Source: Oscillospiraceae bacterium
GTDB taxonomy: Bacteria; Bacillota; Clostridia; Oscillospirales; Ruminococcaceae
Assembly (NCBI GenBank): GCA_017828955.1
Contig: JAGAJQ010000054.1
Coordinates: forward strand, 1-38,570
Direction of reading: 5' to 3'
DNA: 38,570 nucleotides
The notes under the pieces are model-generated. The model saw only the letters and a program-made list of their open reading frames with translations. It made no database searches and was not told where the DNA came from. Both the position numbers and the translations under genes were made by a program. Positions 15,631 through 33,652 of the stretch are shown here, piece after piece; the stretch's first letter is position 1, and every line of letters begins with the position of its first letter.

Positions 15631-16542
15631 ATGCAGAAAAAATCAAAAATAATTATCATTTCGATAGTTTCGGCTATCCTTTTGATCGTCGGAGTTTTTA
15701 CCGCCATAGCGCTTACGGGCGCAGGGAATAATACAGAAAAAGTAACAACGGAAAAACTCTCTCTCGGACAGAAATTTCTTTTAGACCTCGAATATGACAA
15801 GGCTGTTGCGGAATTTCAGGCAGTTATTGATATCGAGCCTAAGAATGTTGACGCTTACATAGGCCTTGCGGATGCCTATATCGGAATGGGCGAAGAAGAA
15901 AAAGCCATTGAAACCCTCGAAAAAGGTCTTTCAGAGACAGGCGATGAAACTATCAGGGCGAAACTCGATGAGATGAAAAAGCCTGAGGAGACAACAGTGG
16001 AGGTTACTACAACACCCGAGGAGACGACAGCCAAAAAATCAGTCTGGCCGAGGAGGGAAGATCATAGCGATGGTTCTTATTCCATACTCGACCCCGATTC
16101 AAATGGAAATTTGATAATAAGTGATTACGAAGCTGACGGAACACTTTATCGTTATTCGATACACGAATACGATTACGATTCAAATGAGGAAAAAGTAAGT
16201 CGCTATAACCCCGATGGAACACTTAATAGTTATTCGATACACGAATACGATTCAAATGGGAATGAGATAAAAATGAGTTTTTACAACGGCGACGGAACAC
16301 TTGATGAGTATTGGATATCCGAATATGATTCAAATGGAAATAGGATAAAAGAAAGTTGGTACAACCCCGACGGAACACTTGATTATTACTCTATACACGA
16401 ATACGATTCAAATGGGAATGAGATAAAATCAAGTGATTACAACCCCGACGGAACACTTTTTTGTTATTCGATATCCGAATACGATTCAAATGGAAACAGG
16501 ATAAAAACAAGTCATTACTACCCCGACGGCACACCGATTTAA
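15631..16542 (+). CDS. Paralogue A: TM anchor + TPR module + Thr/Pro/Glu linker + YD-like repeats
   Basis: Start moved to MQKKSK (RBS AAAGGGGA), shared by all paralogues. TM helix IIIISIVSAILLIVGVFTAIALTG and TPR-like module KLSLGQKFLLDLEYDKAVAEFQAVIDIEPKNVDAYIGLADAYIGMGEEEKAIETLEKG. Five 26-aa repeats of the form EYDSNGNxIKxSxYNPDGTL. Confidence 0.85.
   Translation: MQKKSKIIIISIVSAILLIVGVFTAIALTGAGNNTEKVTTEKLSLGQKFLLDLEYDKAVAEFQAVIDIEPKNVDAYIGLADAYIGMGEEEKAIETLEKGLSETGDETIRAKLDEMKKPEETTVEVTTTPEETTAKKSVWPRREDHSDGSYSILDPDSNGNLIISDYEADGTLYRYSIHEYDYDSNEEKVSRYNPDGTLNSYSIHEYDSNGNEIKMSFYNGDGTLDEYWISEYDSNGNRIKESWYNPDGTLDYYSIHEYDSNGNEIKSSDYNPDGTLFCYSISEYDSNGNRIKTSHYYPDGTPI
16165..16539 (+). repeat. 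Intragenic tandem 78-bp (26-aa) repeats, about 5 units
   Basis: GAATA(C/T)GAT unit starts at 16165, 16243, 16321, 16399 and 16477, an exact 78-nt period. Confidence 0.85.
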
Positions 16543-16549
16543 CCCCAAC

Positions 16550-16580
16550 CCCCACACCATGCAGTGTGGGGATTTTTTTA
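16550..16580 (+). terminator. Rho-independent terminator
   Basis: CCCCACAC / GTGTGGGG stem with a 6-nt loop and a T7 run. Confidence 0.75.
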
Positions 16581-16584
16581 CCTA

Positions 16585-16724
16585 AAACAAACTGCGTAAC
16601 GATCTGCCTGCGCGGGCTCCGTGCCTGCATTTTGTCGGATATGCAGTCCTATCGTTACCGAGTCGCTTTTTAATTCCCACAAACAAACCCCGTAACGATC
16701 TGCCTGCACGGGCTCCGTGCCACC
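16585..16724. repeat. Two ~40-nt intergenic direct repeats, each with a GC-rich hairpin
   Basis: AAACAAACnnCGTAACGATCTGCCTGCrCGGGCTCCGTGCC occurs at about 16586 and 16681. Each copy has an internal GC(A/G)CGG-GCT-CCGTGC hairpin. An ATCGTTAC inverted copy lies between them. Confidence 0.55.
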
Positions 16725-16844
16725 TGTAACCAAATTGTAATAACTTTATGATAAACTGTAATCAATTTGTAATCGCATTGAAGTATAATGTATGGTATAA
16801 TCTGTAAAGGAGAAAAATTTTATTTTTTGGGGGAAGAAGAAAAA

Positions 16845-18173
16845 ATGAAAAAAATTATTATTGCAGTTCTCGCTTTAACACTCACATTCTCTATGACAGG
16901 ATGTTATAAACTGACAGAATTAAACCTTAATGAAAAAACAGAAACAACAACTACTATCATAGAGGGCGCTGATGTTCCTGACGGAGTTGTTATTACAGAG
17001 AATAAAGTCGACCTCGGCGATGGTGAATATCTTATAGAAGAACTCGACGAAAGAGGAAACCTTATCTGTAACAGATATTATTCTTCAGAGGACGTTCTTG
17101 AATATTATTCCACCTATGAATACAACGATATGGACCTTTGCACAAAAGAGATGCATTATGACGCAGAAGGAAACCTTGATATTTATTTTGAAACGGAATA
17201 TAACAACGACGGTTTTATAACAAAGAGAGCGACCTTTGAACCCAACGGAAGCTATCTTTCTTATGACCTATACGAATATGATGAAAATAATAACTGTATA
17301 AAAGAAATGAACTATAATGACGGCACAGAACTTTCATCATATCTGGTTTCGGAATATAATGAAATGAACCTTATTACAAAGACGGAACTTTTCAATCCCG
17401 ATGGAAGCAGTGTCTATACAGATACATATGAATATGACGAAAAAGGACAGCTTATAAAAGAAACTTATTACAACGGAAATAAAGAACTGACAGGCGAATG
17501 TGTATATAAATATGACGATGACGGGAATATTGTAAGCGAAATCCGCACCGATGAAAACGGAGAAAAGTATTTCGGATATTATGAAAGAAACGGAATATAT
17601 CTGGTTGAAACATGGGAGAATGAAGCCGGCGAAATTCTTTATAAATATGATTATGAAGACGGTGTTCTCAAAAGGGAATATTTTTACGAAAAAGGTGTTC
17701 TCACAAGTTATGAAGAACACATAGAAGAAAACGGAAATCACATTCTCATAAGAACATATGTTGATGAAACGGGAAATCCTACACAGTCAGAAACATACAA
17801 CGATTATGGCTATAAAGAAATCGAAGTATACTTTGATGAAATCGGCGAAGTAAAAGACTATTACACATATGAATACAACGGCGACTGGCTCATTGAAAGA
17901 CGCGATTATAAAAATGCAGCAGGCGATACATTATGGTTCGATACCTATGAATACGATGAAAATTTAAGACTTATAAAAGACAGTTGCTATTTCCCCGAAA
18001 GTGAGTTACAATCATATCAGGTTATGGAATACGACGGAAACGGAAACGAGGCAAAGCGTTCTGTATATAATGCCGACGGCACACTTCAGACATACCGCGA
18101 AATGCAGTATGACGATTATGGAAATCTCATTTCTTTCAAGGATTATAACGCCGACGGCACACCCATTTTTTAA
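16845..18173 (+). CDS. Lipoprotein with extended YD-like repeat domain (442 aa)
   Basis: Start moved to MKKIIIAVLALTLTFSMTGC (lipobox) after a GGGGGAAG RBS. Many YEYDxxGxLIKE / YNxDGT repeats. Confidence 0.8.
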   Translation: MKKIIIAVLALTLTFSMTGCYKLTELNLNEKTETTTTIIEGADVPDGVVITENKVDLGDGEYLIEELDERGNLICNRYYSSEDVLEYYSTYEYNDMDLCTKEMHYDAEGNLDIYFETEYNNDGFITKRATFEPNGSYLSYDLYEYDENNNCIKEMNYNDGTELSSYLVSEYNEMNLITKTELFNPDGSSVYTDTYEYDEKGQLIKETYYNGNKELTGECVYKYDDDGNIVSEIRTDENGEKYFGYYERNGIYLVETWENEAGEILYKYDYEDGVLKREYFYEKGVLTSYEEHIEENGNHILIRTYVDETGNPTQSETYNDYGYKEIEVYFDEIGEVKDYYTYEYNGDWLIERRDYKNAAGDTLWFDTYEYDENLRLIKDSCYFPESELQSYQVMEYDGNGNEAKRSVYNADGTLQTYREMQYDDYGNLISFKDYNADGTPIF

Positions 18174-18184
18174 GGAGAAATAAA

Positions 18185-18973
18185 ATGAAGAAATTCATGA
18201 CAGTATCCATAATTTTCGCAATGCTTCTGTCTTTAACGGCTTGTGAAAAAACGGAAGAAAAGCACAACGCAGAAACAACAACTGCTATAACAACAGAAGA
18301 AGTTGCTACAACGGCTGAAACAACTGCTGTGACAACGGAAGAAGTTACAACAACTTCCGAAGAAACTATAACAGTAGCGGAAGAAACAACGGTTGCAACG
18401 GCAGAAACAAACGTTGCGGTAACAACCGCAGCGACCACTGCCGAAAAGAAAGGCCCTAAAACAGAAAGAACCGATGATGAAAAAAACGGCGTATACTACA
18501 TAAAGGAATATGACGATAAGGGCCGTGAAATTGCGGCTTACGGATACCGTATGAAAGACGATTCGCTTATTGCTTACTATACAAAAAAGTATGACAGCAA
18601 TAATGGTTACGAGATGAAAGTCTATGACGGGAATAAGAAACTCACAGGGCATGAATTCCGTGATGCAAAAGACAACCTTGTGAGAGTAAATGTTTTTTCT
18701 ACAAACGGATATGTTCTTTATAAAAGAAACGATAACGGAAGACTTATAAAAGAAGAACATTATAATGAAAACGGAGGTCTTGTCAGTTACTGGACATATA
18801 CTCCCGATGAAAACAGCAAGACAGTAAAGGCGGAGTATTATGATGTTGCGGGAGCGTTTACATATTACTATTCGGGAACGATAAACGAAAGAGGACAGTA
18901 TATACTCAACAAAAAACACTCCGCTGACGGAACAATTATACAGGAACTGGCGCCCGGAGAACAATTTACTTAA
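18185..18973 (+). CDS. Lipoprotein: Thr/Glu-rich linker + YD-like repeats
   Basis: Lipobox LLSLTAC and a TTEEV-type linker. The junction KGPKTERTD is shared with paralogues B and D. Repeats such as KEYDDKGRE and KKYDSNNGY. Confidence 0.8.
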   Translation: MKKFMTVSIIFAMLLSLTACEKTEEKHNAETTTAITTEEVATTAETTAVTTEEVTTTSEETITVAEETTVATAETNVAVTTAATTAEKKGPKTERTDDEKNGVYYIKEYDDKGREIAAYGYRMKDDSLIAYYTKKYDSNNGYEMKVYDGNKKLTGHEFRDAKDNLVRVNVFSTNGYVLYKRNDNGRLIKEEHYNENGGLVSYWTYTPDENSKTVKAEYYDVAGAFTYYYSGTINERGQYILNKKHSADGTIIQELAPGEQFT

Positions 18974-18994
18974 TATAGAGTAAGGAAGACAGAT

Positions 18995-19741
18995 ATGAAA
19001 AAAACAGAAATTATAGTTATAGTAACAATAGTGGTTCTCGCAATAGCGGCGATTGTTGTAGGTATCTTCGCTTTTAAGGGAACGGAAGAAACATCTGCAC
19101 CCAAGGAAGATAAAATCGGGAATTTCTTCTCTGAACTTTTTGAGAAAAAGCCCGAAGATGAAGATGTTGACCCCATTGAACCCGTGGAAACAACAGAAGA
19201 ACCCGATGAAACAGAACCCGAACCCGAAGACGATGAACCTTATGGTGATATTGATGATTTCTTCGAATATGATGACAACGGAAATATAATAGAAGAAGAT
19301 TACGGTGATTATGTTTTAAGACACGAATATGATCACAAAAACCGTAAGATAAGAACTATCACATACGACGGAAAGGGCGATATCCAGTATTGGAGCGATT
19401 TTGAATACAAAGGCGACAGTGACAAGCCCTCAAGAAAAGAAACCAAAGATGCCAACGATGAACATATCTCAACAATTATATATGAATACGGAAGCGACGG
19501 TTCATATACCGAATCAAGCTATCTCCCCAATGGTATTCTTATGGATAAAACATATTTTGATAAATCGGGATTTATAGTAAGGGCAGAATATTATTATAAG
19601 AATTATATGGCTCAGCTTTATGAATTCGACCCCGAAACATACTGTGCAAAGCAGACTGATTATGACGAAGACGGAAATGTCATCTATTATGCCGAATACG
19701 ACGAAAACGGCGATCTTGTAAAAGAAGAAACATATGATTAA
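18995..19741 (+). CDS. TM-anchored protein: acidic Pro/Glu/Asp linker + YD-like repeats
   Basis: N-terminal TM helix IIVIVTIVVLAIAAIVVGIFAF. Repeats FEYDDNGNIIEE, YDEDGNVIYYAEYDENGDLVKEE. Confidence 0.8.
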   Translation: MKKTEIIVIVTIVVLAIAAIVVGIFAFKGTEETSAPKEDKIGNFFSELFEKKPEDEDVDPIEPVETTEEPDETEPEPEDDEPYGDIDDFFEYDDNGNIIEEDYGDYVLRHEYDHKNRKIRTITYDGKGDIQYWSDFEYKGDSDKPSRKETKDANDEHISTIIYEYGSDGSYTESSYLPNGILMDKTYFDKSGFIVRAEYYYKNYMAQLYEFDPETYCAKQTDYDEDGNVIYYAEYDENGDLVKEETYD

Positions 19742-19747: not shown

Positions 19748-19786
19748 ATCCACACTCCCACAGGAGTGTGGATTTTTGTTTTTTTC
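19748..19786 (+). terminator. Rho-independent terminator
   Basis: 11-bp stem ATCCACACTCC / GGAGTGTGGAT with a 4-nt loop and a long T-run. Confidence 0.8.
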
Positions 19787-19857
19787 GACACAATCTTTGC
19801 TGATTTTGCAAACTGACTGAAAAACAAAATAATATTCTGATAGAATATTTTTGTCGG

Positions 19858-20169
19858 CTACATCGTTTTAAGCAGATCAAGGATAAGATCCTGCTGTTCG
19901 ATAGTCAGTTTGTTCCAGTTGTCAAGCAGTTCACGTTGTCTGTCGGATATGACAACAGGCGAGTTGTCAAAGGCGAAAAATTCCGAAAGAGAGATGTGGA
20001 ATGCTTCACAAATATTTATGAGCGATGGGATGGAAGGATTGATGTTCTTTTTAAACCATGAAGAAATCGTGGTCTGAGCAATTCCCGATTCTTCTGAAAG
20101 ACGGTATTCTGTCCATCCGCGCTCATTCTTCAGTTGAAGAATACGCTCTAAAACGGTTATGACTACCAC
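19858..20169 (-). CDS. XRE-family (Cro/C1-type HTH) transcriptional regulator
   Basis: LKNERGWTEYRLSEESGIAQTTISSWFKK is a typical HTH_3 motif. The start is uncertain: the listed GTG abuts the GGGAG of the RBS and there is no in-frame ATG. Confidence 0.75.
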   Translation of the reverse strand: MVVITVLERILQLKNERGWTEYRLSEESGIAQTTISSWFKKNINPSIPSLINICEAFHISLSEFFAFDNSPVVISDRQRELLDNWNKLTIEQQDLILDLLKTM

Positions 20170-20175
20170 CTCCCG

Positions 20176-20193
20176 CGATATATGTCTATATCG
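20176..20193. promoter_or_regulatory. Perfect palindrome CGATATA-TGTC-TATATCG (candidate operator)
   Basis: 7-bp inverted arms immediately upstream of the XRE gene. ATACGATT 8-mers at 20202 and 20246 flank the plus-strand promoter. Confidence 0.35.
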
Positions 20194-20214
20194 TTAATTT
20201 TATACGATTTTTCG

Positions 20215-20284: not shown

Positions 20285-21442
20285 ATGCAGAAAAAATCAA
20301 AAATAATCATAATTTCAATAGTTTCGGCAATTCTTTTAATTGTCGGAATTTTTACTGCCATAGCGCTGACGGGTGCGGATAATCCGACGCAGGCAGTTGC
20401 GACAGAAAAACTCTCTCTCGGACAGAAATTTCTTTTAGACCTCGAATACGACAAGGCCGTTGCGGAATTCACAGCAGTTATTGATATTGAGCCTAAGAAT
20501 GTTGACGCTTACATAGGCCTTGCTGATGCCTATATCGGAATGGGTGATGAAGAAAAAGCCATTGAAACCCTCGAAAAAGGTTTTATGGAAACAGGCGATG
20601 AAACTATCAGGGCGAAACTTGAAGAATTGAAAGCAACATTTAAAGGACCAAAAACAGAACGAACAGATTATAAAAATGGTTATTATCGTATAGATGAATA
20701 TGATTCAAACGGAAATTTGATAAAAAGGAGTTATTACGATACCAAAGGTGTTCTTGGAAATTATCGTATATATGAATATGATTCAAATGGAAATAAGATA
20801 AAAGAAAGTTGTTACAACAGAAATGAAACGACTTATTATACAAACGAATATGACTTGAATGGAAATTGTATAAAAATAAGTTACTACAAAATAAACGGGA
20901 TTCTTTGTTATATAGATGAGTATAATTTAAACGGAAAGTTGATAAAAAAGAGTTATTACAACGCCGATGGAACATATAGCTCGATACACGAATACGATTC
21001 AAACGGAATTTTGATAAAAAATAGTTATTACAACGCCGACGGAACGCTTGATTATATACTGGAATACGATTCAGACGGGAAATTGATAAGAGAAAACCAT
21101 TACAATGCCGACGGAATTTTTGATTGTATGCATGAATACGATTCGAAAGGTATTTTGATAAAAAGAAGTTGGTATAACCCCGATGGAACACTTATTGATT
21201 ATTACATATGCGAATGCAATTCAAATGGAAAATTGATAAAAGAAAACCATTACAATGCCGACGGGATTTTTGATTGTATATTGGAATACGATGTATATGG
21301 TAATGAAATAAAAAGAAGTTGGTATAACCCCGACGGAACGCTTATTGATTATTACACATACGAATACGATTCAGAGAGCCAACTTATAAAAGAAAATCAT
21401 TACGATGCCGACGGAACGCTTATCGAAGAATACACCTACTAA
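20285..21442 (+). CDS. Paralogue B: TM anchor + TPR module + YD-like repeats (no Thr-rich linker)
   Basis: The N-terminal ~110 aa is nearly identical to A, D and E. Junction KGPKTERTD, then about 11 repeats (EYDSNGNLIKRSYY, YNADGTLDYILEYDSDGKLIRENHY). Confidence 0.85.
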   Translation: MQKKSKIIIISIVSAILLIVGIFTAIALTGADNPTQAVATEKLSLGQKFLLDLEYDKAVAEFTAVIDIEPKNVDAYIGLADAYIGMGDEEKAIETLEKGFMETGDETIRAKLEELKATFKGPKTERTDYKNGYYRIDEYDSNGNLIKRSYYDTKGVLGNYRIYEYDSNGNKIKESCYNRNETTYYTNEYDLNGNCIKISYYKINGILCYIDEYNLNGKLIKKSYYNADGTYSSIHEYDSNGILIKNSYYNADGTLDYILEYDSDGKLIRENHYNADGIFDCMHEYDSKGILIKRSWYNPDGTLIDYYICECNSNGKLIKENHYNADGIFDCILEYDVYGNEIKRSWYNPDGTLIDYYTYEYDSESQLIKENHYDADGTLIEEYTY

Positions 21443-21460: not shown

Positions 21461-22126
21461 ATGAAAACAAAAATCTTATGTTACATAATCGACGGAATAA
21501 TACTCATATCGCTTATTGCGGTATGGGTTTATGTTCTTTTAACAGAAATGCCCATGAAATCAATAATCGCGATAGCGCTTATCTCGCTTGTCCTCATAAT
21601 ACTCGGCGGAGTTGTTCTTTTTGTGGCGATGAGAAGTGAAAGCGGAGAAAAGTCTGTTAAAAAACAGGTTGAAGAAAAAGAAGAAGTTCCCGTTATCGAA
21701 AAGCCTGAACCTGTTACTAAAAACAACGACGATCCGGAAACTGATATTATGCTAAAAGAACCGACAACAGAGATCATACTTGACAAAGGGTCTGACAAAA
21801 CAGAAATCATTCCTCAGAAGAGAAGTTTTTATGTAAAACTTCAGGATAAGAACAACTCTGTAAAGACATATCAGACATATTTTGACACAGAGGCTATCAT
21901 CGGAAGACATGAAGGAAACTGCAATATTGTCCTTGCGGATGAAAAGAGCGTTTCAAGACGCCATTGCAGACTTTTTGTCGATAAGGACAGAATTATGGCG
22001 GAGGACTTAGGGTCTTCAAACAGAACTTATGTAAACGGAATTCAGGTTGAGGGACGTGCACTTGAAATAAAAAGCGGAGATGAACTCAGAATGGGCAGAG
22101 CGATATTTATTGTCACAATAAATTAA
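21461..22126 (+). CDS. Membrane-anchored FHA-domain protein
   Basis: Two N-terminal TM helices and an acidic linker containing TTEII and KTEII. The C-terminal FHA domain has canonical phosphothreonine-binding residues (IIGRHE, SVSRRH, SSNRTYVNG). Confidence 0.85.
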   Translation: MKTKILCYIIDGIILISLIAVWVYVLLTEMPMKSIIAIALISLVLIILGGVVLFVAMRSESGEKSVKKQVEEKEEVPVIEKPEPVTKNNDDPETDIMLKEPTTEIILDKGSDKTEIIPQKRSFYVKLQDKNNSVKTYQTYFDTEAIIGRHEGNCNIVLADEKSVSRRHCRLFVDKDRIMAEDLGSSNRTYVNGIQVEGRALEIKSGDELRMGRAIFIVTIN

Positions 22127-22139: not shown

Positions 22140-23624
22140 ATGAAATACTGTGAATATACAAATACAGGAATAATCCGAAGCGTCAATCAGGACAGCCTTC
22201 TTTCGCTCTCGATGAACGGCTCGGGGCTTTTTGTCGTTGCCGACGGAATGGGCGGACATATAGACGGAGAGATTGCCAGCAAGGCTGTTAAAAAGGCCTG
22301 TCAGAAATGGTGGAACACATCTTTTATGGAAAATTCAGATATGGATTTTCTTCTGGCGGTTGAAGAAATCAAGGCAGCGATTGAAATTGTCAACAAAAAT
22401 CTCATAAAGAAAATGGAAGGTACGGGAAAAATCTGCGGAACAACCGTTGCCGTTGTTTTCATTCATAACGGTGCTTATGCCGCTATGAATATAGGCGACA
22501 GCAGAATATATCTTTCGAATAAAAGAGGTGTGCGTAAAATTTCATTTGACCACACCTTGAATTCGTTTGAGGAGATAAAAAACACCGCTCTTTCTGAAAA
22601 GGATAAACTTACTCAGGCGATAGGTGTTAAAGAAGATCTCAGCTGGTACACGGCGACAGATACACTCAAAAACGACGAAAAATTCTTTATCTGCACAGAC
22701 GGTGTTTATAAATACACAGAAGAGGAAGACCTTTTTTCTGCAATAAAGAATTACTCAGAAGAGGAAGAGATAAAGAAGGAAATCGAAAAGCAGGTTATCT
22801 TAGGCGGTGCGCCTGATAACTTTTCTTTTATTGCAATAGATATGAGAAAAGAAAAAGCCTCGGTTTCAAGAAAGCCTCTTATCATCGTTTCGGCGATAGC
22901 GGTTGCACTTTTCGTTATATTCACAGTGATTTTTGCGGTTGCCGTTTCGGGAGATAAAGGAGAAAATATACAGACTGTTATGTCTGAAAAACTCTCCCTC
23001 GGTCAGAAATTTCTTTTAGACCTCGAATACGACAAGGCTGTTGCAGAATTCACAGCCGTTATTGATATCGAGCCTAAGAATGTCGACGCTTATATGGGGC
23101 TTGCTTCTGCTTATATCGGTATGGGTGAAAAGGATAAGGCTATTGAAACTCTCGAAAAGGGTCTTATGGAAACGGACGACGAAACTATCAGGGCAAAACT
23201 TATGGAACTCAAAACCCCCGAAGAAACAACAGCAGAGGTGACTACTACCCCCGAAGAAACAACCCCCGAGACTACAACAACCCCTGAGGAGACGACAACT
23301 GTTCCTGAAACGACAATGGTTGTAACTACACAAAAAGCAGCAACAATAAAAAAATTCGAATATGAAGATGAGGATATTATAAGTGAATTTGATTCAAATG
23401 GAAGAATAATAAAAAGAAGTATCTATAAGAAAGACGGAACACTTTTAGAATACGAAATATATGGATACGATTCATACGGGAATATGTCAGAAGGATATTT
23501 TTATAAAGCAGACGGAACACTTCTTCGTTATTTCAGAGAAAAATACGATGAGAACGGAAGGATTGTAGATGCGACTATTAAAGTTTTAGAAGGAACAGCA
23601 TCTCCAATGGGAATTGTGCAATAA
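22140..23624 (+). CDS. PP2C (PPM) Ser/Thr phosphatase fused via a TM helix to the paralogue TPR + linker + YD-like ectodomain
   Basis: PPM motifs NQDS, VVADGMGGH, GDSRIY and TDGV. TM helix LIIVSAIAVALFVIFTVIFAVAV. This is followed by KLSLGQKFLLDLEYDKAVAEFTAVIDIEPKNVDAYMGL, a TTTPEETT linker and FDSNGRIIKRSIY repeats. Confidence 0.85.
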   Translation: MKYCEYTNTGIIRSVNQDSLLSLSMNGSGLFVVADGMGGHIDGEIASKAVKKACQKWWNTSFMENSDMDFLLAVEEIKAAIEIVNKNLIKKMEGTGKICGTTVAVVFIHNGAYAAMNIGDSRIYLSNKRGVRKISFDHTLNSFEEIKNTALSEKDKLTQAIGVKEDLSWYTATDTLKNDEKFFICTDGVYKYTEEEDLFSAIKNYSEEEEIKKEIEKQVILGGAPDNFSFIAIDMRKEKASVSRKPLIIVSAIAVALFVIFTVIFAVAVSGDKGENIQTVMSEKLSLGQKFLLDLEYDKAVAEFTAVIDIEPKNVDAYMGLASAYIGMGEKDKAIETLEKGLMETDDETIRAKLMELKTPEETTAEVTTTPEETTPETTTTPEETTTVPETTMVVTTQKAATIKKFEYEDEDIISEFDSNGRIIKRSIYKKDGTLLEYEIYGYDSYGNMSEGYFYKADGTLLRYFREKYDENGRIVDATIKVLEGTASPMGIVQ

Positions 23625-25910: not shown

Positions 25911-26066
25911 ATGATTGAATTTATAAAGAATCTTTCTGTCGGCGAGCTTATGTTCTATGGCGGAATTTCAGGCGCAGGGCTTTGCGTTATCGCGATGATA
26001 GTGGGAATTCCCCTTACAAACCTCGGCAAAAAGCAGGTTAAGAACAAAATAGACAAGGAGTATTAA
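25911..26066 (+). CDS. Small membrane protein (51 aa), absent from the ORF track
   Basis: RBS AAGGAG 8 nt upstream of the ATG. Sequence MIEFIKNLSVGELMFYGGISGAGLCVIAMIVGIPLTNLGKKQVKNKIDKEY has one TM helix and a basic tail. It exactly fills the gap between the kinase gene and paralogue D. Confidence 0.5.
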   Translation: MIEFIKNLSVGELMFYGGISGAGLCVIAMIVGIPLTNLGKKQVKNKIDKEY

Positions 26067-26069: not shown

Positions 26070-27176
26070 ATGCAGAAGAAATCAAAAATAATTATCATTT
26101 CGATAGTTTCGGCTATCCTTTTGATCGTCGGAGTTTTTACTGCCATATCACTTACGGGTGCAGGAAATAATACAGAAAAAGTAACAACGGAAAAACTCTC
26201 TCTCGGGCAGAAATTTTTACTCGACCTTGAATACGACAAGGCCGTTGCGGAATTTCAGGCAGTTATTGATATCGAGCCTAAGAATGTTGACGCTTACATA
26301 GGGCTTGCGGATGCCTATATCGGAATGGGCGAAGAAGAAAAGGCAATAGAAACTCTCGAAAAAGGTTTTATGGAAACAGGCGATGAAACTATCAGGGCGA
26401 AACTCGATGAGATTAAAGAGGTTGAGGAGACGACAGCGGAGGTTACTACTACTCCCGAGGTGACGACAACTCCGCCTGAAACGACAACAGAGGAGGTAAC
26501 GACAACACCTGAGGTTACGACTACTCCCGAGGTTACTACAACACCCGAGGTGACAACAACTGAGGAAATAACTACAACTCCCGAGGTTACTACAACCCTA
26601 AAAGGTCCGAGAACGGAGAGGGTAGATTTTGATGACGGAAGTTATCTGATTCACGAATATGACAAAGATGGTCAGTGTTTAAAAGAAACAGTATATTATT
26701 CAAATGGCGAATCCTATGGAGAAGCCACTAACGGCTTAACTGGTTGGTGGAATAATAAGAAAAATGAAACAGTTGAATACCGGTTTATTCATTTTAATAA
26801 ATGGATACGCGAGTTTGATTCAAATGGAAATATGATAAAAGTAAGTTATTACAACGCCGACGGAACGCTTAGTTATTACTATATAAACGAATACGATTCA
26901 AATGGAAATAGGATAAAAGAAAGTAGTTACAACGGCGACGGAACACTTATAGTTATATTAGAATACGATTCAAATGGAAATAGGATAAAAGACAGTTGGT
27001 ACCACTCCGACGGAACACTTTATAATTACTCTATACACGAATACGATTCAAATGGAAATAGGATAAAAGAAAGTTGGTACACCCCCGACGGAACACTTTA
27101 TTTGATATCCGAATACGATTCAAATGGAAATAGGATAAAAGAAAGTTGGTACAACCCCGACGGAACACCGATGTAA
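26070..27176 (+). CDS. Paralogue D: TM anchor + TPR module + long PEVTTT linker + YD-like repeats
   Basis: The N-terminal module is by eye about 90% identical in nucleotides to paralogue A. Junction KGPRTERVD, then repeats EYDSNGNRIKESWY. Confidence 0.85.
   Translation: MQKKSKIIIISIVSAILLIVGVFTAISLTGAGNNTEKVTTEKLSLGQKFLLDLEYDKAVAEFQAVIDIEPKNVDAYIGLADAYIGMGEEEKAIETLEKGFMETGDETIRAKLDEIKEVEETTAEVTTTPEVTTTPPETTTEEVTTTPEVTTTPEVTTTPEVTTTEEITTTPEVTTTLKGPRTERVDFDDGSYLIHEYDKDGQCLKETVYYSNGESYGEATNGLTGWWNNKKNETVEYRFIHFNKWIREFDSNGNMIKVSYYNADGTLSYYYINEYDSNGNRIKESSYNGDGTLIVILEYDSNGNRIKDSWYHSDGTLYNYSIHEYDSNGNRIKESWYTPDGTLYLISEYDSNGNRIKESWYNPDGTPM
26421..26598 (+). repeat. Thr/Pro/Glu/Val low-complexity tandem repeat (PEVTTT units)
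   Basis: EVTTTPEVTTTPPETTTEEVTTTPEVTTTPEVTTTPEVTTTEEITTTPEVTTT, encoded by degenerate 18-nt units. Confidence 0.8.
26811..27173 (+). repeat. Intragenic tandem 72/78-bp repeats, about 5 units
   Basis: Unit starts at 26811, 26889, 26961, 27039 and 27111. The string GAATACGATTCAAATGGAAATAGGATAAAAGA recurs four times, at the last four unit starts. Confidence 0.85.
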
Positions 27177-27202: not shown

Positions 27203-30200
27203 ATGGCATATATATTTTATTTCAACTTCAAAGAAAATGTTTATGAATACCCGTTGCCTGCTGTCAACAACAGGGTCATAAGCATTGATATATCTGAATT
27301 CTCATCGGAAAAAGGCGTTATAAATCTTGAAATCTTTGACGGCGTATGGAAACTCCTCCCCTCAGAAGATTTCAACTTCTCAGTGAACAACTCAATAATA
27401 ACAGAGAAGAAAATCGAAGACGGCGACAAAATCACAGCGAAGAAAAAACGCGGGGAACTCACCTTTATGATTTTTGCGCTCAAAGCCTCTGAAAACACAA
27501 GCGTATACAGAAAATGGTCGCTCGAAGGGGTAAACAGGGTTACTGTCGGTATGGATGAAAACTGCGATATCGTTTATAAAGAACAGTTTGTCAGCCATAA
27601 ACACGCAACTATCGAAAGAAAAGGCTCGGGCTTTTTCCTTACAGACAATTCAACAAACGGAACATTTTTAAATGGCTCGAAAATATCGGGCGAAACCCCT
27701 CTTTCTATCTTTGACACAATATACATACTGGGTCTTAAAATAATCTTTTTAGGCGAATATATAGCAACAAACAAGATTTTGGAACTCGGCGTTTCGCTTA
27801 CTGAAATATGCGATATAAACAATGATTATGAGCCTTATGAGGATGAATCCGACTTTTCTCGTTCACCGAGAAGAATAGAGCCTCTCGATGAAGAAGTAAT
27901 TGAGATAGAATCCCCTCCCTCACAGCATAAGGCTTCGAGTCAGCCTCTTATTTTCATAATAGGCCCTTCGGTAACAATGCCACTGCCGATTATGATTTCT
28001 GTCATCATAAATATGATGTCATCGGGCAACACATCAAATCCGCTTATGTATTTAGGAACGGTAATTTCCGTTGTATGTTCGGGATTCATAGGCGCGGGTT
28101 GGGCACTCGCACATCAGTTTTATAACAAGAAGACAGTTAAAAAACAGGAAGAAGCAAGAGTAAAGGCATATGGCGAATATATTGCCAAAAACGAAAATCT
28201 TCTCTCTGAAAAACAGGATAAGAACAAGCGTATTATAGATGAACAGTTTTTATCCTCAGATAAACTTATGAAAAAGGTTTTCAAGGATAAGACTTTTTTA
28301 TGGAACAGAAATATAAACCACGCCGATTTCTCGAAAATCCGTTTCGGAACAGGCTCTGTAAAACTTCCTAACGGAATATCTGTTCCCAAGGAAAGATTTT
28401 CTATGAATGACGACACCCTTGCCGACAAGCCGAGAGAGCTTTTCGACCGTTACAACACAATGGAAGACTGCGCATATACCGCAAGACTCAACGACAGCAA
28501 GATATGGGGCGTTATCGGTGAATATAAGAATGTTATGAATATCGTCAATAACATCGCCGTTCAGCTTTCGGCGCTCCATAGTTATAGCGATATCAAGATA
28601 GCGATTCTCTGTAAAGAAAACGAAAAGGAAAAATATCTCTGGATGAAGTGGCTTCCTCATATATTCTCATCCGACAGAAAAGTAAGAATGTTCGGATGCG
28701 ACAGCAACTCTGTAAAGAATGTATGCAATTTCCTCGGCGGAGAACTCCGTTCAAGAGAGGAGAATGCAGAGGGTGCATTATCAAGGGATTTAAGATTTCT
28801 CCCTCATTATTTCGTTATCTGCACAGACAAGTCCATCCTTGAAAAGAACAGTCTTTCAAAATACATAATGAATAATTCCGAGCTCGGTTTTACATTCATT
28901 CTTGCATACGAAAAGATGGACAAACTCCCCAATGAATGTAAGGTCATCATACAGCATGACGAAACATACAGCGGAATATATTCGCTTTCATCAACTATCG
29001 ACGAAACAAACTCTGTAAATTTCGATAACGTTGATGTAAAATACGCAGAAAAATATGCAAGAGCAATAAGCGGACTTTATCTTACAGAATTCACACAGGG
29101 CGAAATCCCCGCTTCTATCGATTATCTCGATATGCTCGGCATAGGAAAATTCGAACAATGGAACCTTATCAGAAAATACAAGGAAAACCGTTCTTATGAA
29201 AGTCTTGCTTCGTTTATAGGAATAGGAACAGGTAACCGCCCCGTTGTTCTTGATATCAGCGAAAAGATGCATGGTCCTCATGGTCTTATTGCGGGAACAA
29301 CAGGCTCGGGTAAGAGTGAAACAATACAGACATTTATTCTTTCGCTTATTTTAAATTACAGCCCCGATGAAGTTGCGTTTATCCTTATTGACTATAAGGG
29401 TGGAGGAATGGCAGCCGCTTTTGAAGGAATACCTCACCTTGCGGGAATTATCACAAACCTCGGCGGAGATACAGGCGAGGGTGAGATTGACGAAAACCTT
29501 ACAAGACGTGCACTTATCTCGATAAAGAGTGAAATAAAGAGAAGACAGCAGATTTTCAACCGCTATAAAGTAAACCATATAAACCAGTATATAAAGATGT
29601 ACAGAGGCGGTGCTGTCAGCGAAGCATTACCCCATTTGATTATTATATCGGACGAATTTGCAGAACTTAAACACAAACAGCCTGAATTCATCAAAGAACT
29701 TGTCAGCGTTGCCAGAGTAGGAAGAAGCCTCGGCGTTCATCTTATACTTGCAACACAGAAACCTTCGGGGGTTGTCGATGAAGAAATCTGGAGTAACTCA
29801 CGTTTCAAAATCTGTCTTAAAGTTCAGGACAAGCAGGACAGTATAGGAATGCTCAAACGCCCCGAGGCAGCATATCTTGTCAATACGGGACGCGCTTATA
29901 TGCAGATAGGAAACGATGAGATTTTTGATATGTTCCAGTCGGGATATTCGGGTGCTGAATATATGCCGACAGATGAATTTGTTTCTTCAAAGGATAAGGA
30001 AGTCATTATGATTGATATCGACGGAACATATCTTGAAGAAAACACAATGACAGGAAAAGGAAATCAGACAGGTATCTCACAGCTTAAAGCGGGTATTGAT
30101 TATGTAATAAATGTTTCGGCAATGAGTGGTTTCAAACCGACAAGAAAACTTTGGAATGAATGTCTGCCTTCGCTTATCGGTCTTGATAAACTTGATGTTT

Positions 30201-31798
30201 CGGGCATTGATTTTAAAAGCGGGCTCATCTCCTGCTATGGTATCATTGATAACCCTGAAAAACAGTCACAGTATCCTGCTGTCGTTGATGTTTCAAAGAC
30301 ATCTCATATACTTGTTTCAGGTATGTCAGGCTCAGGAAAATCAACATTCTTACAGACAATGGTATATTCTCTTGTTTCAAGATATACTCCCGATGAAATA
30401 CAGTTCTACTTCATAGATTTTTCAAGCAGAACAACAAGAAAATTTGAAAAGCTTCCTCATTGCGGAGGAGTTGTTTTCCAGGAACACAACGAACTCATAG
30501 AAAGACTTTTCAGACTTCTTGAAAACGAATGTGATGAAAGAAGAAGAATTTTCGATAAGGCAGATGCGGGAAGTTTCGGTGAATATACAAAGAAGAATAA
30601 AATGCCTATGATACTTGTTGTAATCGACAATTATGCAGGTTTTTCAGAAGGGTATCCCGAACTTGCAGAAAAACTCGCAGGGTTTTCAAGAGACTGCCTT
30701 AAATACGGCATCCAGCTTGTTATTTCAGCGAATAATACAAACGATGTGAAATACAAGACAATGCAGAATATCGGATATAAAATCGCACTCCGCCTTTCAG
30801 ACCGTTATGGATATAACGAAATACTCGGTGGTGCGCCCGAATTCACACCTTCAAAATATGCAGGCCGTGGTCTTGTAAAAGAAGACGGTATTTTAGAATT
30901 CCAGACAGCTGTTCCGTTTGAAATCGAAGATGAAACAGAACGTTCTGAAAAGATGATAAAGGAATTTTCAGATATCGCAAAGAAATACAAGAAACACACT
31001 CCCGCAAAGAGAATTCCGTCTATCCCCAGGGATGAAATATATGCTGATTTCTATGAAAAGAATAAGGCGGATGGTATGATTCCTTTAGGATACGATACAA
31101 ACGATATCTCACCTCTTTCTCTTTCGAGACGTGATACATTCTGTCTTGCTGTCGGTGCTTCTGAAGAAAAGAGTATATCGCTTATGTTCAGTAACTTCAC
31201 TTACTGTGCGAAACAGTCGGGCGCTGTTGTATGGTATTTTAAAACATCGACAGATATGCTCTGTAAACCTGAATATGTCGACAGGGTTTATACAAAGACA
31301 AAAATCGAAGATTTTCTTAAAGCCTTGCAGAAAGAGTTTGAAACTGCATCTGAAATAAGAGGGAAATATAAGGATTCTATGAGTGTAAACGAGATGGAAA
31401 CAAAGGTTGTCGAAGAAAAGAAGATGCTCTATATCTTTATTGATAATATGGCAGAATTTTGTAAGATAATATATAATCCCAAAAATGAATATCCGCTTAA
31501 TAATATTGTTGAGGAGACATTCAGATATGGCGAAAAGAGAGGGGTAACCTTTATAGTTGGCTTCGGAACTGATAGCTATATCGACGCTATACACAGCACA
31601 GCCTGCAGGAATTTCCTCTTTAATAAGACAATTCTTCATATCGGCGGACATCTTGATCAGCAGAAACTTTATTCTTCATCATTGCCTTATAATATCCAGA
31701 ACAGACCTCTTGATTTACAGACAGGCTATTTCTTCAACGGAACAACCGAAAGACAGATATTCATACCATTGTCCGAACGAGGTGAAAACGATGCTTGA
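27203..31798 (+). CDS. essC: T7SS FtsK/SpoIIIE-family ATPase EssC (N-terminal FHA region, 2 TM helices, 3 ATPase domains)
   Basis: FHA-like segment VTVGMDENCDIVYKEQFVSHKHATIE...STNGTFLNG and two TM helices. D1 has GTTGSGKSE and IIISDEFAEL. D2 has GMSGSGKST and VVIDNYA. D3 has the degenerate P-loop GASEEKS. The 1531-aa length is typical of EssC/YukB. Confidence 0.9.
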   Translation: MAYIFYFNFKENVYEYPLPAVNNRVISIDISEFSSEKGVINLEIFDGVWKLLPSEDFNFSVNNSIITEKKIEDGDKITAKKKRGELTFMIFALKASENTSVYRKWSLEGVNRVTVGMDENCDIVYKEQFVSHKHATIERKGSGFFLTDNSTNGTFLNGSKISGETPLSIFDTIYILGLKIIFLGEYIATNKILELGVSLTEICDINNDYEPYEDESDFSRSPRRIEPLDEEVIEIESPPSQHKASSQPLIFIIGPSVTMPLPIMISVIINMMSSGNTSNPLMYLGTVISVVCSGFIGAGWALAHQFYNKKTVKKQEEARVKAYGEYIAKNENLLSEKQDKNKRIIDEQFLSSDKLMKKVFKDKTFLWNRNINHADFSKIRFGTGSVKLPNGISVPKERFSMNDDTLADKPRELFDRYNTMEDCAYTARLNDSKIWGVIGEYKNVMNIVNNIAVQLSALHSYSDIKIAILCKENEKEKYLWMKWLPHIFSSDRKVRMFGCDSNSVKNVCNFLGGELRSREENAEGALSRDLRFLPHYFVICTDKSILEKNSLSKYIMNNSELGFTFILAYEKMDKLPNECKVIIQHDETYSGIYSLSSTIDETNSVNFDNVDVKYAEKYARAISGLYLTEFTQGEIPASIDYLDMLGIGKFEQWNLIRKYKENRSYESLASFIGIGTGNRPVVLDISEKMHGPHGLIAGTTGSGKSETIQTFILSLILNYSPDEVAFILIDYKGGGMAAAFEGIPHLAGIITNLGGDTGEGEIDENLTRRALISIKSEIKRRQQIFNRYKVNHINQYIKMYRGGAVSEALPHLIIISDEFAELKHKQPEFIKELVSVARVGRSLGVHLILATQKPSGVVDEEIWSNSRFKICLKVQDKQDSIGMLKRPEAAYLVNTGRAYMQIGNDEIFDMFQSGYSGAEYMPTDEFVSSKDKEVIMIDIDGTYLEENTMTGKGNQTGISQLKAGIDYVINVSAMSGFKPTRKLWNECLPSLIGLDKLDVSGIDFKSGLISCYGIIDNPEKQSQYPAVVDVSKTSHILVSGMSGSGKSTFLQTMVYSLVSRYTPDEIQFYFIDFSSRTTRKFEKLPHCGGVVFQEHNELIERLFRLLENECDERRRIFDKADAGSFGEYTKKNKMPMILVVIDNYAGFSEGYPELAEKLAGFSRDCLKYGIQLVISANNTNDVKYKTMQNIGYKIALRLSDRYGYNEILGGAPEFTPSKYAGRGLVKEDGILEFQTAVPFEIEDETERSEKMIKEFSDIAKKYKKHTPAKRIPSIPRDEIYADFYEKNKADGMIPLGYDTNDISPLSLSRRDTFCLAVGASEEKSISLMFSNFTYCAKQSGAVVWYFKTSTDMLCKPEYVDRVYTKTKIEDFLKALQKEFETASEIRGKYKDSMSVNEMETKVVEEKKMLYIFIDNMAEFCKIIYNPKNEYPLNNIVEETFRYGEKRGVTFIVGFGTDSYIDAIHSTACRNFLFNKTILHIGGHLDQQKLYSSSLPYNIQNRPLDLQTGYFFNGTTERQIFIPLSERGENDA

Positions 31799-32522
31799 TG
31801 TTTATATCTATGACGCGGATATTTCAAGGCATACTACTGTTCAGAGCTATTGTTTCAGATTTTTTATGAGGAAAAATCTGACATCCGAAATAAAACTCAT
31901 AACAGCCGACGCTATGGAAGCAGGCAGAGTTTTTTCAGAAGAGGAGAAGCAATCTGTTTTTATAATAAGCTGTGATGAATATTCCGATTATCTTATAAAA
32001 TCTATGAGAAAAGGGAATGCCGAAAATTATCTGATAATTGTTGCAAACGATTTTGATGATATTCTTAAATATCTGAAACCCGGTCATAAACCATCAGGAT
32101 TTATATTAAGACCTATGAAACCCTATGACATAGAAAAACTTATGGGAGATATAATTTCGGATTATAAATCGAAAAAAGAAAAGCAGGAGTTTGATTGTTT
32201 TGTTTTCAAGATGAAGTCAACGGAATACAGCATTCCGTTTGACTCGATAATATCCTTTGAAAGCGGAAACAAGAAAATAAAACTGAAAACCGCCGAAAAG
32301 GAATATTCCTTTTACAGCACATTCGATGATATACAGAACACCCTCCCCGATGGGTTTATAAGGGTGCATAAAAGCTATATCATCAATATGGCGCATATAA
32401 AAGAAATTCATTATGCCGATTCTGAAATTATTTTAAGCGGTGGAACAAGCGTTTATTTTTCAAGGACATACCGCAGTGTTGTCAGAGAACTTTTCAACAT
32501 AAACGCAGAAACAGTCTCATAG
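31791..32522 (+). CDS. LytTR-family DNA-binding protein with atypical receiver-like N-terminal domain
   Basis: ATG at 31791 follows RBS GAGGTGA and overlaps the essC stop (ATGCTTGA). The listed start at 31557 lies inside essC. The C-terminal LytTR motif is FIRVHKSYIINMAHIKEI. The N-terminal domain has VYIYDAD and VFIISCD but lacks the conserved receiver Thr/Ser and Lys (LIIVAN, FILRP). Confidence 0.75.
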   Translation: MLDVYIYDADISRHTTVQSYCFRFFMRKNLTSEIKLITADAMEAGRVFSEEEKQSVFIISCDEYSDYLIKSMRKGNAENYLIIVANDFDDILKYLKPGHKPSGFILRPMKPYDIEKLMGDIISDYKSKKEKQEFDCFVFKMKSTEYSIPFDSIISFESGNKKIKLKTAEKEYSFYSTFDDIQNTLPDGFIRVHKSYIINMAHIKEIHYADSEIILSGGTSVYFSRTYRSVVRELFNINAETVS

Positions 32523-32534
32523 GAGGAAATTTAT

Positions 32535-32792
32535 ATGACAAAGATACTTGTTGAAATAAATTGCCCCTCAACTGCAAGAAACTATGAATTCTGGATTTCA
32601 AAGCAGATGATTGTAAAGGACGTTATAAAAATCTGCAAAGAAGAAATCTGTATGACAGAGGGCAATAAGAAGATTTTCAACGATAACGAAAATATGGTGC
32701 TTTTTTCACAGAGGCTCCGTATTCCGCTTAATGAAAACTATACCGCAACCGAAGCGGGAATCATAAGCGGAGATAAACTTATGATTGTTTAA
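32535..32792 (+). CDS. esaB: YukD/EsaB-like ubiquitin-fold T7SS protein (85 aa)
   Basis: Size, a beta-grasp-like pattern (KILVEINCP, YEFWISKQMIVKDV, ISGDKLMIV at the C-terminus) and position beside essC. RBS AGGAGG. Confidence 0.65.
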   Translation: MTKILVEINCPSTARNYEFWISKQMIVKDVIKICKEEICMTEGNKKIFNDNENMVLFSQRLRIPLNENYTATEAGIISGDKLMIV

Positions 32793-32806
32793 AGAGGACG
32801 AATTTT

Positions 32807-33652
32807 ATGCAGAAAAAATCAAAAATAATCATAATTTCGGTAGTTTCGGCAATTCTTTTAGTTGTAGGAGTTTTTACCGCCATAGCACTCACAGGTAAGG
32901 GAAACAGCATTGAAAAAGAGGTCGGCGAAAAGCTCTCTCTCGGGCAGAAATTCTTGCTTGACCTCGAATACGACAAGGCCGTTGCGGAATTTCAGGCAGT
33001 TATTGATATCGAGCCTAAGAATGTTGACGCTTATATAGGCCTTGCTGATGCCTATATCGGCATGGGCGAAGAAGAAAAGGCAATAGAAACCCTCGAAAAA
33101 GGTTTTATGGAGACAGGCGATGAAAAGATTCAGGCGAAACTCGAAGAGATGAAAACCCCCGAAGAAACAACCGCAGAGGTAACCACAACACCCGAGGAGA
33201 CGACAACTGTTCCTGAAACTACAACAACAGTTGCGACGACAGCCAAAAAATCAGGCTGGACAGAGAGGAAAGATTATAGCGATGGTTCTTATCGGATAAT
33301 CGAATACGATTCGGACGGGCATATGATAAAATCAAGTTATTACAACGCTGACGGAACGCTTAATTATTACTATATAAACGAATACGATTCAAAAGGAATT
33401 TTGATAAAAAATAGTTTTTACAATGCCGACGGCATACTTGATTGCTATTATACTTATGAATATTATTCCTATCCTGGCAAATACAAAAAAGCATATAAAT
33501 ATCTTCCTGACGGAACACTTGACAGTTATTCTTTATTTGAATATTATGAATCCGGTTACATCAAAAAACAGACATGGTATTACCAATCGGGTGGCGAAGG
33601 CTGGCATGATTGGGAAGACGGAGAAGCCATGTGGGCTCATGCGATTTGGTAA
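32807..33652 (+). CDS. Paralogue E: TM anchor + TPR module + Thr-rich linker + YD-like repeats
   Basis: Same MQKKSKIIIIS start and TPR module. Repeats EYDSDGHMIKSSYYNADGTL. The divergent Trp-rich C-terminus is WYYQSGGEGWHDWEDGEAMWAHAIW. Confidence 0.85.
   Translation: MQKKSKIIIISVVSAILLVVGVFTAIALTGKGNSIEKEVGEKLSLGQKFLLDLEYDKAVAEFQAVIDIEPKNVDAYIGLADAYIGMGEEEKAIETLEKGFMETGDEKIQAKLEEMKTPEETTAEVTTTPEETTTVPETTTTVATTAKKSGWTERKDYSDGSYRIIEYDSDGHMIKSSYYNADGTLNYYYINEYDSKGILIKNSFYNADGILDCYYTYEYYSYPGKYKKAYKYLPDGTLDSYSLFEYYESGYIKKQTWYYQSGGEGWHDWEDGEAMWAHAIW

Follow-up and report, generated by a model that had tools for sequence, protein, structure and literature searches.

The window analysed here is a 38,570-nt stretch of DNA (contig JAGAJQ010000054.1, positions 1 to 38,570 of the forward strand; assembly GCA_017828955.1) from a metagenome assembly of an uncultured, Oscillospiraceae-like member of the Clostridia, labelled W in the genome comparisons below. 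It carries a locus that resembles, in its gene content, the T7SSj subtype of type VII secretion system (T7SS), and among the secretion genes lie four paralogues, A, B, C and D, whose products open with the same short tetratricopeptide repeat (TPR) module behind a membrane anchor, here called the handle. The plus-strand order is A and L1–L3, then a tightly packed series of B, a gene for an FHA-domain protein, a PP2C phosphatase gene with its own transmembrane (TM) segment, TPR and repeats, a kinase gene, a 51-aa open reading frame (ORF), C, the EssC gene, a LytTR gene, a YukD-like gene and D (Table 1). B, C and D are packed into the core operon, and this synteny is kept in three related genomes, R, X and S. 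A first-pass annotation made from the letters alone had placed copies before the FHA gene, before essC and after yukD, and all three placements hold (gaps of 18, 26 and 14 nt).

Table 1. Features of the handle-bearing locus, in window coordinates.
Feature	Coordinates	Strand	Description
Paralogue A	15631..16542	+	Handle 15631–15975, 34-aa linker, 6 DUF2963 units; intrinsic terminator after; divergent from WXG100/LXG operon
Paralogue B	20285..21442	+	Handle 20285–20629, 18-aa linker, 10 DUF2963 units; end 18 nt 5′ of FHA gene
Paralogue C	26070..27176	+	Handle 26070–26414, 76-aa Thr/Pro/Glu linker, 6 DUF2963 units; end 26 nt 5′ of essC
Paralogue D	32807..33652	+	Start 14 nt 3′ of YukD-like gene; handle 32807–33151, 46-aa linker, 3 DUF2963 units, Trp-rich tail; terminator after
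PP2C phosphatase, receptor-type	22140..23624	+	PP2C domain, own TM segment, fifth TPR copy (core 22989–23213), Thr/Pro/Glu linker, degenerate DUF2963-like repeats
Ser/Thr kinase, TsjD-like	23682..25898	+	TM segment, C-terminal multi-TPR domain predicted to be extracytoplasmic
Membrane FHA-domain protein	21461..22126	+	Hydrophobic N-terminal segments, C-terminal FHA domain
EssC/TsxC FtsK-type ATPase	27203..31798	+	N-terminal FHA domain
YukD-like small protein	32535..32792	+	Weak full-length Pfam YukD match; synteny after essC in related genomes
51-aa single-TM ORF, candidate TsjK-like	25911..26066	+	Between kinase gene and C; conserved upstream of the C copy in genome R
L1 (16788–18173), L2 (18185–18973), L3 (18995–19741)	16788..19741	+	Lipoprotein or TM-anchored; degenerate YD-like repeats
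WXG100-family genes and LXG-like CHAP-domain toxin (13684–14646)	13011..15421	−	Divergent from A

All four genes begin with MQKKSKIIIIS, as had been noticed on first reading, and in nucleotide alignments their homology starts exactly at the ATG, the preceding 150 nt showing no similarity. The common block is 345 nt long (about 115 aa) and ungapped, with pairwise nucleotide identities of 83–93% and A and C as the closest pair. The first-pass annotation had recognized such a block, put at about 330 nt and roughly 90% identity; the block itself stands, its identity is a spread rather than a single value, and its description as near-identical goes too far, since A and D, credited with some 25 mismatches over 340 nt, differ at 55 of 345 positions. 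One 23-mer taken from the block was counted five times along the window, as against no occurrence in 100 shuffles. Beyond the block the genes part company in the manner first described, with linkers of 18–76 aa, 3–10 repeat units and distinct tails.

The four proteins share one order of parts, in which an N-terminal TM anchor is followed by two TPRs with a capping helix, a linker rich in Thr, Pro and Glu, and the DUF2963 (YD-like) β-hairpin units. TPR_19 and related Pfam models match residues 54–110, and TPR_19 scores 40–43 bits in A–D and in the phosphatase (P), well over the cut-off of 25. In the AlphaFold2 model of A (mean pLDDT 86), residues 9–27 form a TM helix and residues 34–116 five helices, which make up the two TPRs and the capping helix; a disordered linker (119–137) follows and then a 13-strand β-hairpin sheet modelled with a pLDDT of 95–98. 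In a sequence search of the PDB the handle TPR matched only consensus-TPR (CTPR) designs (E from 1e-36 to 1e-9), and Foldseek superposed the modelled TPR on CTPR with an rmsd of about 2 Å over 79 residues. The anchor is predicted to be a single pass with its N-terminus inside, so that the TPR and everything C-terminal of it would lie outside the membrane; this topology is suggested by the Lys-rich N-termini, by the cytoplasmic PP2C domain ahead of the TM segment in the fused copy and by the lipoboxes that replace the plain anchor in some relatives.

A further copy of the module, overlooked when the paralogues were first counted as four, lies inside the PP2C gene (22989–23213). Residues 283–357 of the phosphatase, which also has a PP2C_2 match (E = 4.6e-14), are a TPR module with 79–86% nucleotide identity to A–D over 225 nt, while its TM segment is unrelated to theirs. 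The receptor-type phosphatase, with its outer TPR, is paired at the locus with a receptor-type kinase that likewise bears an outer TPR domain. In several genera the PP2C and handle genes are separate and adjacent, with the handle gene directly downstream of PP2C (L012, L030, L047 and L068), whereas in the window they are fused.

The ectodomains of A–D are built from a common 26-aa DUF2963 unit, with between-gene nucleotide identities of 70–82%, and differ mainly in repeat number and amino acid substitutions rather than in kind, D alone having a Trp-rich tail. The first-pass description of diversified YD-like ectodomains is thus right as to divergence and wrong if it is taken to imply unrelated domains. 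Against the PF11178 (DUF2963) cut-off of 22.6 bits, A scores 71.8, B 137.2, C 101.3 and D 29.2, and the phosphatase repeats, at 19.1, fall below it; RHS_repeat and MORN_2 gave weaker matches. A sequence search of the PDB returned no match for the DUF2963 repeats. Foldseek of the A sheet found the YD repeats of Rhs proteins, Tc toxins and teneurins as well as OspA-like single-layer sheets (E = 6e-8, TM-scores of at most 0.28), and these low TM-scores point to an open YD-like sheet rather than an Rhs shell. Identity with Rhs toxins was accordingly considered and rejected, there being only 3–10 units, an open sheet and no toxin or autoprotease domain in Pfam; unlike Rhs proteins, A–D form no closed shell and have no plug, autoprotease or toxin tip.

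The one published description of DUF2963 concerns phytoplasma effectors, in which the 26-residue unit is called the ‘Scorpion hairpin’ (bioRxiv 10.1101/2025.07.14.664665). A–D share with those proteins, and with RHS/YD repeats (PF05593), hairpins of about 26 residues arranged in a sheet, a repeat number that varies among paralogues and a helical N-terminal part. However, the phytoplasma proteins are secreted effectors of Mollicutes, whereas A–D are membrane-tethered proteins of Clostridia. In metagenomic proteins DUF2963 ectodomains are also fused to FecR-like TM regulators (P0023, P0035 and P0040) and to CsgD/LuxR/sigma70_r4 TM regulators (P0056, P0064 and P0084), which agrees with DUF2963 being an extracellular sensing domain.

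Purifying selection acts strongly on the handle within the window, where dN/dS among the copies is about 0.1 and dS is 0.27–0.60 in the TPR part and 0.19–1.4 in the TM part. Its proportion of nonsynonymous differences (pN) is 0.03–0.05 as against 0.23–0.24 in the repeat-unit cores, about a five-fold difference, and the proportion of synonymous differences (pS) in the repeat units, about 0.5, is comparable to that of the handle. Since pS is similar and only pN is higher in the repeats, the contrast between handle and ectodomain reflects mostly constraint and not a recent homogenization of the 5′ ends. This constraint-driven contrast, together with a low dN/dS at a sizeable dS of 0.2–1.4, supports one account of the family, namely that A–D are plain paralogues, old tandem or dispersed duplicates whose N-terminus was kept by purifying selection only, with no part played by conversion or recombination.

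The comparison across genomes speaks against that account. When one genome per species was scanned, 72 loci proved to encode the module; in R, X and S, which are syntenic with the window, the copies occupy the same slots, and a neighbour-joining tree was built from the 225-nt TPR cores of 17 copies from W, R, X and S. In this tree the cores group by genome. The five X copies, including the phosphatase copy, cluster with 100% support (89% on third positions only) and the three S copies with 98.6% (98% on third positions only), and clades based on position receive 0%; R_C is an outlier. In X and S the phosphatase TPR joins the cluster of its own genome whereas the phosphatase TM region stays position-specific, so the conversion tracts are confined to the TPR. 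Mean TPR-core pS is 0.43 within genomes (range 0.14–0.5) compared with 0.60 between positional orthologues, and in flanking single-copy genes it is 0.58–0.70, that is, saturated, between W and X or S, and 0.14–0.26 between W and R.

Codon bias was considered as a cause of the clustering by genome and ruled out: the fraction of identical codons expected from codon usage is 0.45–0.48 for any genome pair, and the observed fraction is 0.52–0.59 between W, X and S and 0.70–0.75 within genomes. A Sawyer-type permutation test further shows A–D to be mosaic (global P = 0.007; A–C, P = 0.007; B–C, P = 0.0007). The TPR copies of one genome, that of the phosphatase among them, are therefore homogenized by occasional short gene-conversion tracts, which is concerted evolution, and this homogenization is old and episodic. 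The first-pass annotation had offered gene conversion or concerted evolution as one of two readings, and uniform divergence along the genes without N-terminal homogenization would have spoken against it; the clustering by genome with no support by position and the mosaicism of A–D bear the reading out. For plain paralogy there remains the pairing by position of the phosphatase copies of W and R, but it would have to accommodate clustering by genome that persists at third positions, a within-genome excess of identical codons beyond codon usage, significant mosaicism and a recombinant allele described below. It is implausible that duplication should have recurred independently into five matching syntenic slots, of which one is within a phosphatase gene, and plain paralogy is on balance quite unlikely.

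The other reading offered at first, a recombination cassette system that swaps surface domains, is also substantiated. A set of 241 homologues of A includes 21 whose TPR core is at least 80% identical to that of C; these 21 bear DUF2963, an all-alpha family, DUF5050, leucine-rich repeats (LRR) or a further unassigned domain. In related strains, handles that are 80–96% identical thus carry at least five unrelated C-terminal domain types, and the same handle is found on all-alpha, DUF5050, LRR or other domains in P0016, P0019, P0020, P0026, P0036 and P0073. The all-alpha ectodomain family has no Pfam or PDB match, and Foldseek was significant only over the TPR part.

Two breakpoints could be mapped. 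In slot A of strain L074 the resident copy, A′, is 90% identical to A from 156 nt upstream through gene nt 377; past this point the two are unalignable as far as the stop codon, and identity returns, at about 91%, in the terminator and L1. In P0028, nt 1–180 of the gene are 93–98% identical to the resident X-type handle, and from about nt 240 to the end the gene is 95–100% identical to a W-lineage allele. The core genes of the two lineages are, by contrast, synonymously saturated, which marks the allele as recently imported, the breakpoint falling within the TPR. The handle, then, is the 5′ homology arm for replacement of ectodomain cassettes between strains and between lineages. Slot D of genome S (S_D, L006 9956–10591) and of an X-type strain (P0036) holds a non-DUF2963 ectodomain that has no Pfam match, so slot D also undergoes cassette replacement.

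A conserved N-terminal region joined to recombined C-terminal domains is the architecture of CdiA-CT, Rhs-CT and LXG toxin systems, in which a conserved N-terminal homology arm is retained and the C-terminal domains are replaced, including between lineages. Unlike these systems, A–D have no detected toxin domain or paired immunity gene. Pfam recognized no toxin family in any ectodomain, and the copies are followed immediately 3′ by a terminator and then L1 (A), by the FHA gene (B), by essC (C) or by a terminator (D), not by a cognate immunity gene. They also differ in being Sec-type membrane-anchored proteins rather than T7SS substrates, and in a conserved part of only about 115 aa that is, in addition, homogenized among five intragenomic copies.

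Slot A also differs between strains in its surroundings. A haplotype without the T7SS, found in at least four assemblies (L074–L076 and L078), keeps MCP, A′, L1, L2, L3 and the histidine kinase/response regulator (HK/RR) pair and has neither the WXG/LXG block (window 11542–15474) nor the block that runs from the HTH gene to D (19783–33695). Its MCP gene is 98.9% identical to that of the window and its chromosomal neighbours are the same, although the flanks with the ABC transporter and BTAD genes are arranged differently from those of the window. Presence of the T7SS blocks, and with them of B, P, C and D, thus varies. L1–L3, which have no TPR handle, remain adjacent to copy A in these haplotypes. 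Deletion mediated by the handle was ruled out as the source of this haplotype, because the junctions lie in terminator T-runs and TGACAAA microhomology and not in handle copies.

Variation of this kind could also be expected of immunity proteins. T7SS loci often hold arrays of paralogous membrane-protein or lipoprotein immunity genes, such as TipC and EsaG, and A–D might be extracytoplasmic immunity proteins, or orphan arrays of them, directed against cell-wall-acting T7SS toxins such as the LXG-CHAP protein and polymorphic as the toxins are. Arrays of immunity paralogues are usual at such loci, copy A and the LXG-CHAP operon are divergently arranged in W, R and L079/L080, and the ectodomains do vary between strains. 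However, the copies stand between core genes (FHA, kinase, EssC and YukD) rather than downstream of toxins, in slots that are conserved across genera, and one of them is fused to a PP2C phosphatase. Moreover, the slot-A ectodomain switches (DUF2963, all-alpha alt1, alt2) while the CHAP operon is conserved, A′ persists without the toxin block, and DUF2963 repeats occur on FecR- and LuxR-type regulators. An immunity function is, on this evidence, unlikely.

The secretion genes themselves are best compared with T7SSj, for which a TPR kinase, a PPM phosphatase and FHA proteins have been described and control by phosphorylation has been proposed (Garrett et al., 2024; PMC11217815). Most T7SSj components have a counterpart in the window. 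Like T7SSj and the related T7SSe and T7SSf (PMC11217815), the locus encodes WXG100 proteins, an FHA-EssC, a TPR kinase, a PPM phosphatase and an FHA protein with a gene of its own, and, again as in T7SSj, it has LXG-type substrates with WXG100-like partners; a YukD-like protein and a small ORF with a single TM segment are candidates for two further shared parts. TsjA corresponds to the Pfam WXG100 matches at 13011–13334 and 13369–13662, with a weaker one at 14665–15009, and TsjC, an FtsK ATPase with an N-terminal FHA domain, to the EssC gene (FHA, E = 3.7e-16 in the first 366 aa, together with FtsK_SpoIIE domains), a placement made by domains and not by phylogeny. For the ubiquitin-like TsjB the candidate is the YukD-like gene, which matches Pfam YukD over its full length, though weakly (E = 0.035; 15.3 bits, where the cut-off is 27), and also stands after essC in X, S and others. 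The kinase agrees with TsjD (Pkinase, E = 4e-38; TPR_12, TPR_19 and TPR_14 in residues 417–555) and the phosphatase with TsjF, which is here extended by a TM segment, the handle TPR and repeats. The candidate for TsjK is the 51-aa ORF, which has one hydrophobic helix, is kept in R and is likened to TsjK by size and TM segment only.

Other features set the locus apart. The phosphatase is membrane-bound and bears a TPR and repeats on its outer side, and the host belongs to an uncultured Oscillospiraceae-like lineage rather than to Clostridium. The FHA protein, which has a hydrophobic N-terminus and a good FHA match (E = 8e-18), differs from TsjJ in having no DUF6382 match even at E ≤ 5, and no ORF or Pfam match in the window corresponds to TsjI, the large Sec-secreted protein with Ig repeats. 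Proteins that combine a TM anchor, a TPR and an ectodomain are not described in the T7SSj paper (PMC11217815).

The missing TsjI bears on another explanation, in which A–D would be structural, envelope-spanning parts of the apparatus, analogous to EsaA/TsxI, with the TPR serving assembly and the Thr/Pro-rich linker crossing the wall. The co-operonic position of B, C and D with core genes and the disordered, Thr/Pro/Glu-rich linker would suit such a part as well. One would nonetheless not expect a core component to take on an unrelated fold from one close strain to the next, both the number of copies and the type of ectodomain vary, and copy A persists where there is no T7SS, which makes a structural role distinctly unlikely.

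The handle family extends far beyond this locus and is widespread in Clostridia. In 34 of 70 distinct places the flanks contain genes for a Ser/Thr kinase (26), EssC (15), PP2C (14), FHA (10), WXG/LXG (8) or YukD (4) proteins, and the machine-linked fraction drops with distance from the query. The kinase is the commonest neighbour: handle genes lie directly after a kinase in seven cases, after PP2C in four, after YukD in three and after FHA in two. The first-pass annotation had called this a locus-specific family tied to the secretion machine and allowed that a genome-wide scatter without T7SS linkage would count against the idea; the tie, strong without being absolute, is present at these 34 places, and the locus-specificity gives way to a Clostridia-wide range. 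In members further removed from the query the module is joined to cytoplasmic heads, such as a Zn-ribbon, and to outer domains that include LRR and RCC1. In L049, L062 and P0126–P0130, six or seven tandem copies of a 75-aa TPR module follow a TM anchor in proteins of about 700–800 aa, so the TPR module is itself a repeatable unit.

Searches of other collections varied in reach. A word-indexed protein search with the handle only, which is insensitive, gave five matches, and a profile of the handle alignment gave 191,283 in a library of 1.84 billion representatives, mostly generic multi-TPR proteins but also tandem-module relatives and PP2C-fused members. In metagenome contigs an exact scan with the 23-mer found no match, and none of the 336 stretches from a protein-pattern (8-mer) scan was confirmed by tblastn, which looks technical rather than a true absence.

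That roughly half of the loci are linked to the machine leaves room for the view that A–D are surface adhesins or wall proteins independent of the T7SS, and that the secretion island inserted into, or recruited, an existing adhesin locus. The haplotype without the T7SS keeps A′-L1-L2-L3 in the same neighbourhood beside a nearly unchanged MCP gene, 36 of the 70 family loci have neither a T7SS nor a kinase neighbour, and LRR, DUF5050 and YD-like domains are typical binding domains. Yet B, C and D belong to the T7SS block that is variably present and disappear together with it, and in many genera the module either forms part of PP2C or has it as a neighbour, and lies next to a TPR kinase. Linkage at about 50% of loci would, in addition, be far above chance for a locus that covers about 1% of a genome. 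Adhesins unconnected with secretion are, in our judgement, very unlikely.

The account that we consider probable, though with reservations, is that A–D belong to a Clostridia-wide family of membrane-tethered extracytoplasmic proteins whose handle, conserved, subject to conversion and used as a cassette arm, serves for docking to a common partner, the proteins themselves having a sensor or adaptor role. Retention of one module on five proteins of the outer face would be explained by docking to one common partner on that face of the membrane. The most parsimonious partner would be the kinase/phosphatase signalling complex, or the handle proteins might dock to each other; the fusion to the phosphatase and the adjacency to the kinase point to the phospho-switch of the T7SS. 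A–D would then be interchangeable sensor or adhesin/adaptor subunits that feed cell-surface cues into a threonine-phosphorylation switch of secretion. Taken jointly, the fusion to PP2C, the conservation of the slots and the variability of the cassettes are better accommodated by this explanation than by any alternative discussed above.

Several observations weigh against it. The handle is not recently homogenized within the window, where pS among A–D is 0.22–0.41, the phosphatase copies W_P and R_P still pair as orthologues (99.8%), and the conversion tree comprises only four syntenic genomes, all of them metagenome-assembled. Half of the more distant members lack a T7SS or kinase neighbour within the flanks, and the TPR is close to the consensus TPR, which makes distant matches less specific. 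The retention of A′ where the T7SS blocks are absent means that copy A needs no T7SS at this locus. A sensor or adaptor role at the kinase-phosphatase switch is what we infer from the genomic arrangement, and the docking partner is a guess.

A parallel in Gram-negative bacteria suggests a bolder version. In the type VI secretion system (T6SS) of Pseudomonas aeruginosa, a threonine-phosphorylation pathway, TagQRST-PpkA-PppA-Fha1, includes envelope proteins that have been proposed to relay surface cues to the kinase. Threonine phosphorylation of a T6SS in A. tumefaciens is likewise cited in the T7SSj study (PMC11217815). The window resembles the Pseudomonas arrangement in that the genes of a secretion machine stand together with those for a kinase of the membrane, a PP2C phosphatase, an FHA-domain protein and accessory envelope proteins. 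Unlike the Tag proteins, to which they have no sequence relationship, A–D belong to a Gram-positive envelope, share a module with the phosphatase and carry exchangeable ectodomains, and their function is proposed rather than established. By this analogy the handle might be the docking module of an exchangeable array of extracellular sensors that gates a phosphorylation-controlled T7SS, a Gram-positive counterpart of TagQRST-PpkA-PppA-Fha1, which we regard as a conceivable but doubtful extension. The receptor-type kinase and phosphatase would share an outer TPR platform with several handle proteins, the ectodomain type (YD-like sheet, LRR, propeller or helical) would decide which surface cue or target cell triggers firing, and gene conversion would keep all subunits compatible with the common partner.

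None of the ingredients is new, since the T7SS subtype, the TPRs and the hairpins of DUF2963/YD type have each been known before. In the literature no description was found of a T7SS-linked handle family, of its concerted evolution with a phosphatase or of ectodomain exchange mediated by the handle. The kinase, phosphatase and FHA genes of the recently named T7SS subtypes have so far been a genomic hint, and the locus offers candidates for the missing input layer, which bears on when, and against whom, Gram-positive type VII systems fire. Conversion confined to one module that a signalling enzyme has in common with its putative partners is a clean natural example. Should the functional proposal prove wrong, the locus would still present a well-documented modular family of surface proteins with handle-mediated cassette exchange.

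Among the neighbouring genes, the minus-strand cluster divergent from A is likely a T7SS toxin module. Its central gene (13684–14646) encodes a CHAP peptidoglycan hydrolase fused to an LXG/WXG100-like N-terminus, with genes at 13011–13662, 14665–15421 and 11609–12937 on its flanks; three or four of these neighbours are WXG100-like, and another encodes a protein of 442 aa that Pfam does not recognize. Regulatory genes are found both within and beside the locus. An orphan LytTR gene (31791–32522) lies between essC and the YukD-like gene and overlaps the essC stop, and beside the locus, on the minus strand (33708–37060), are genes for an agr-like histidine kinase of the GHKL type, for a response regulator with LytTR and for a BTAD regulator. 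In a related contig (L079, 1006–1729), AgrB and a 47-aa ORF adjoin the HK/RR pair. The LytTR and agr-like neighbours suggest transcriptional control of a quorum type.

DUF2963/YD-like repeats without a TPR handle also occur in further lipoproteins or TM proteins of the window, at 16788–19741 and at 5355–5822 on the minus strand. The latter lies outside the T7SS locus and adjoins a CotH-DUF4956-VTC operon. The repeats thus have a wider range than the handle.

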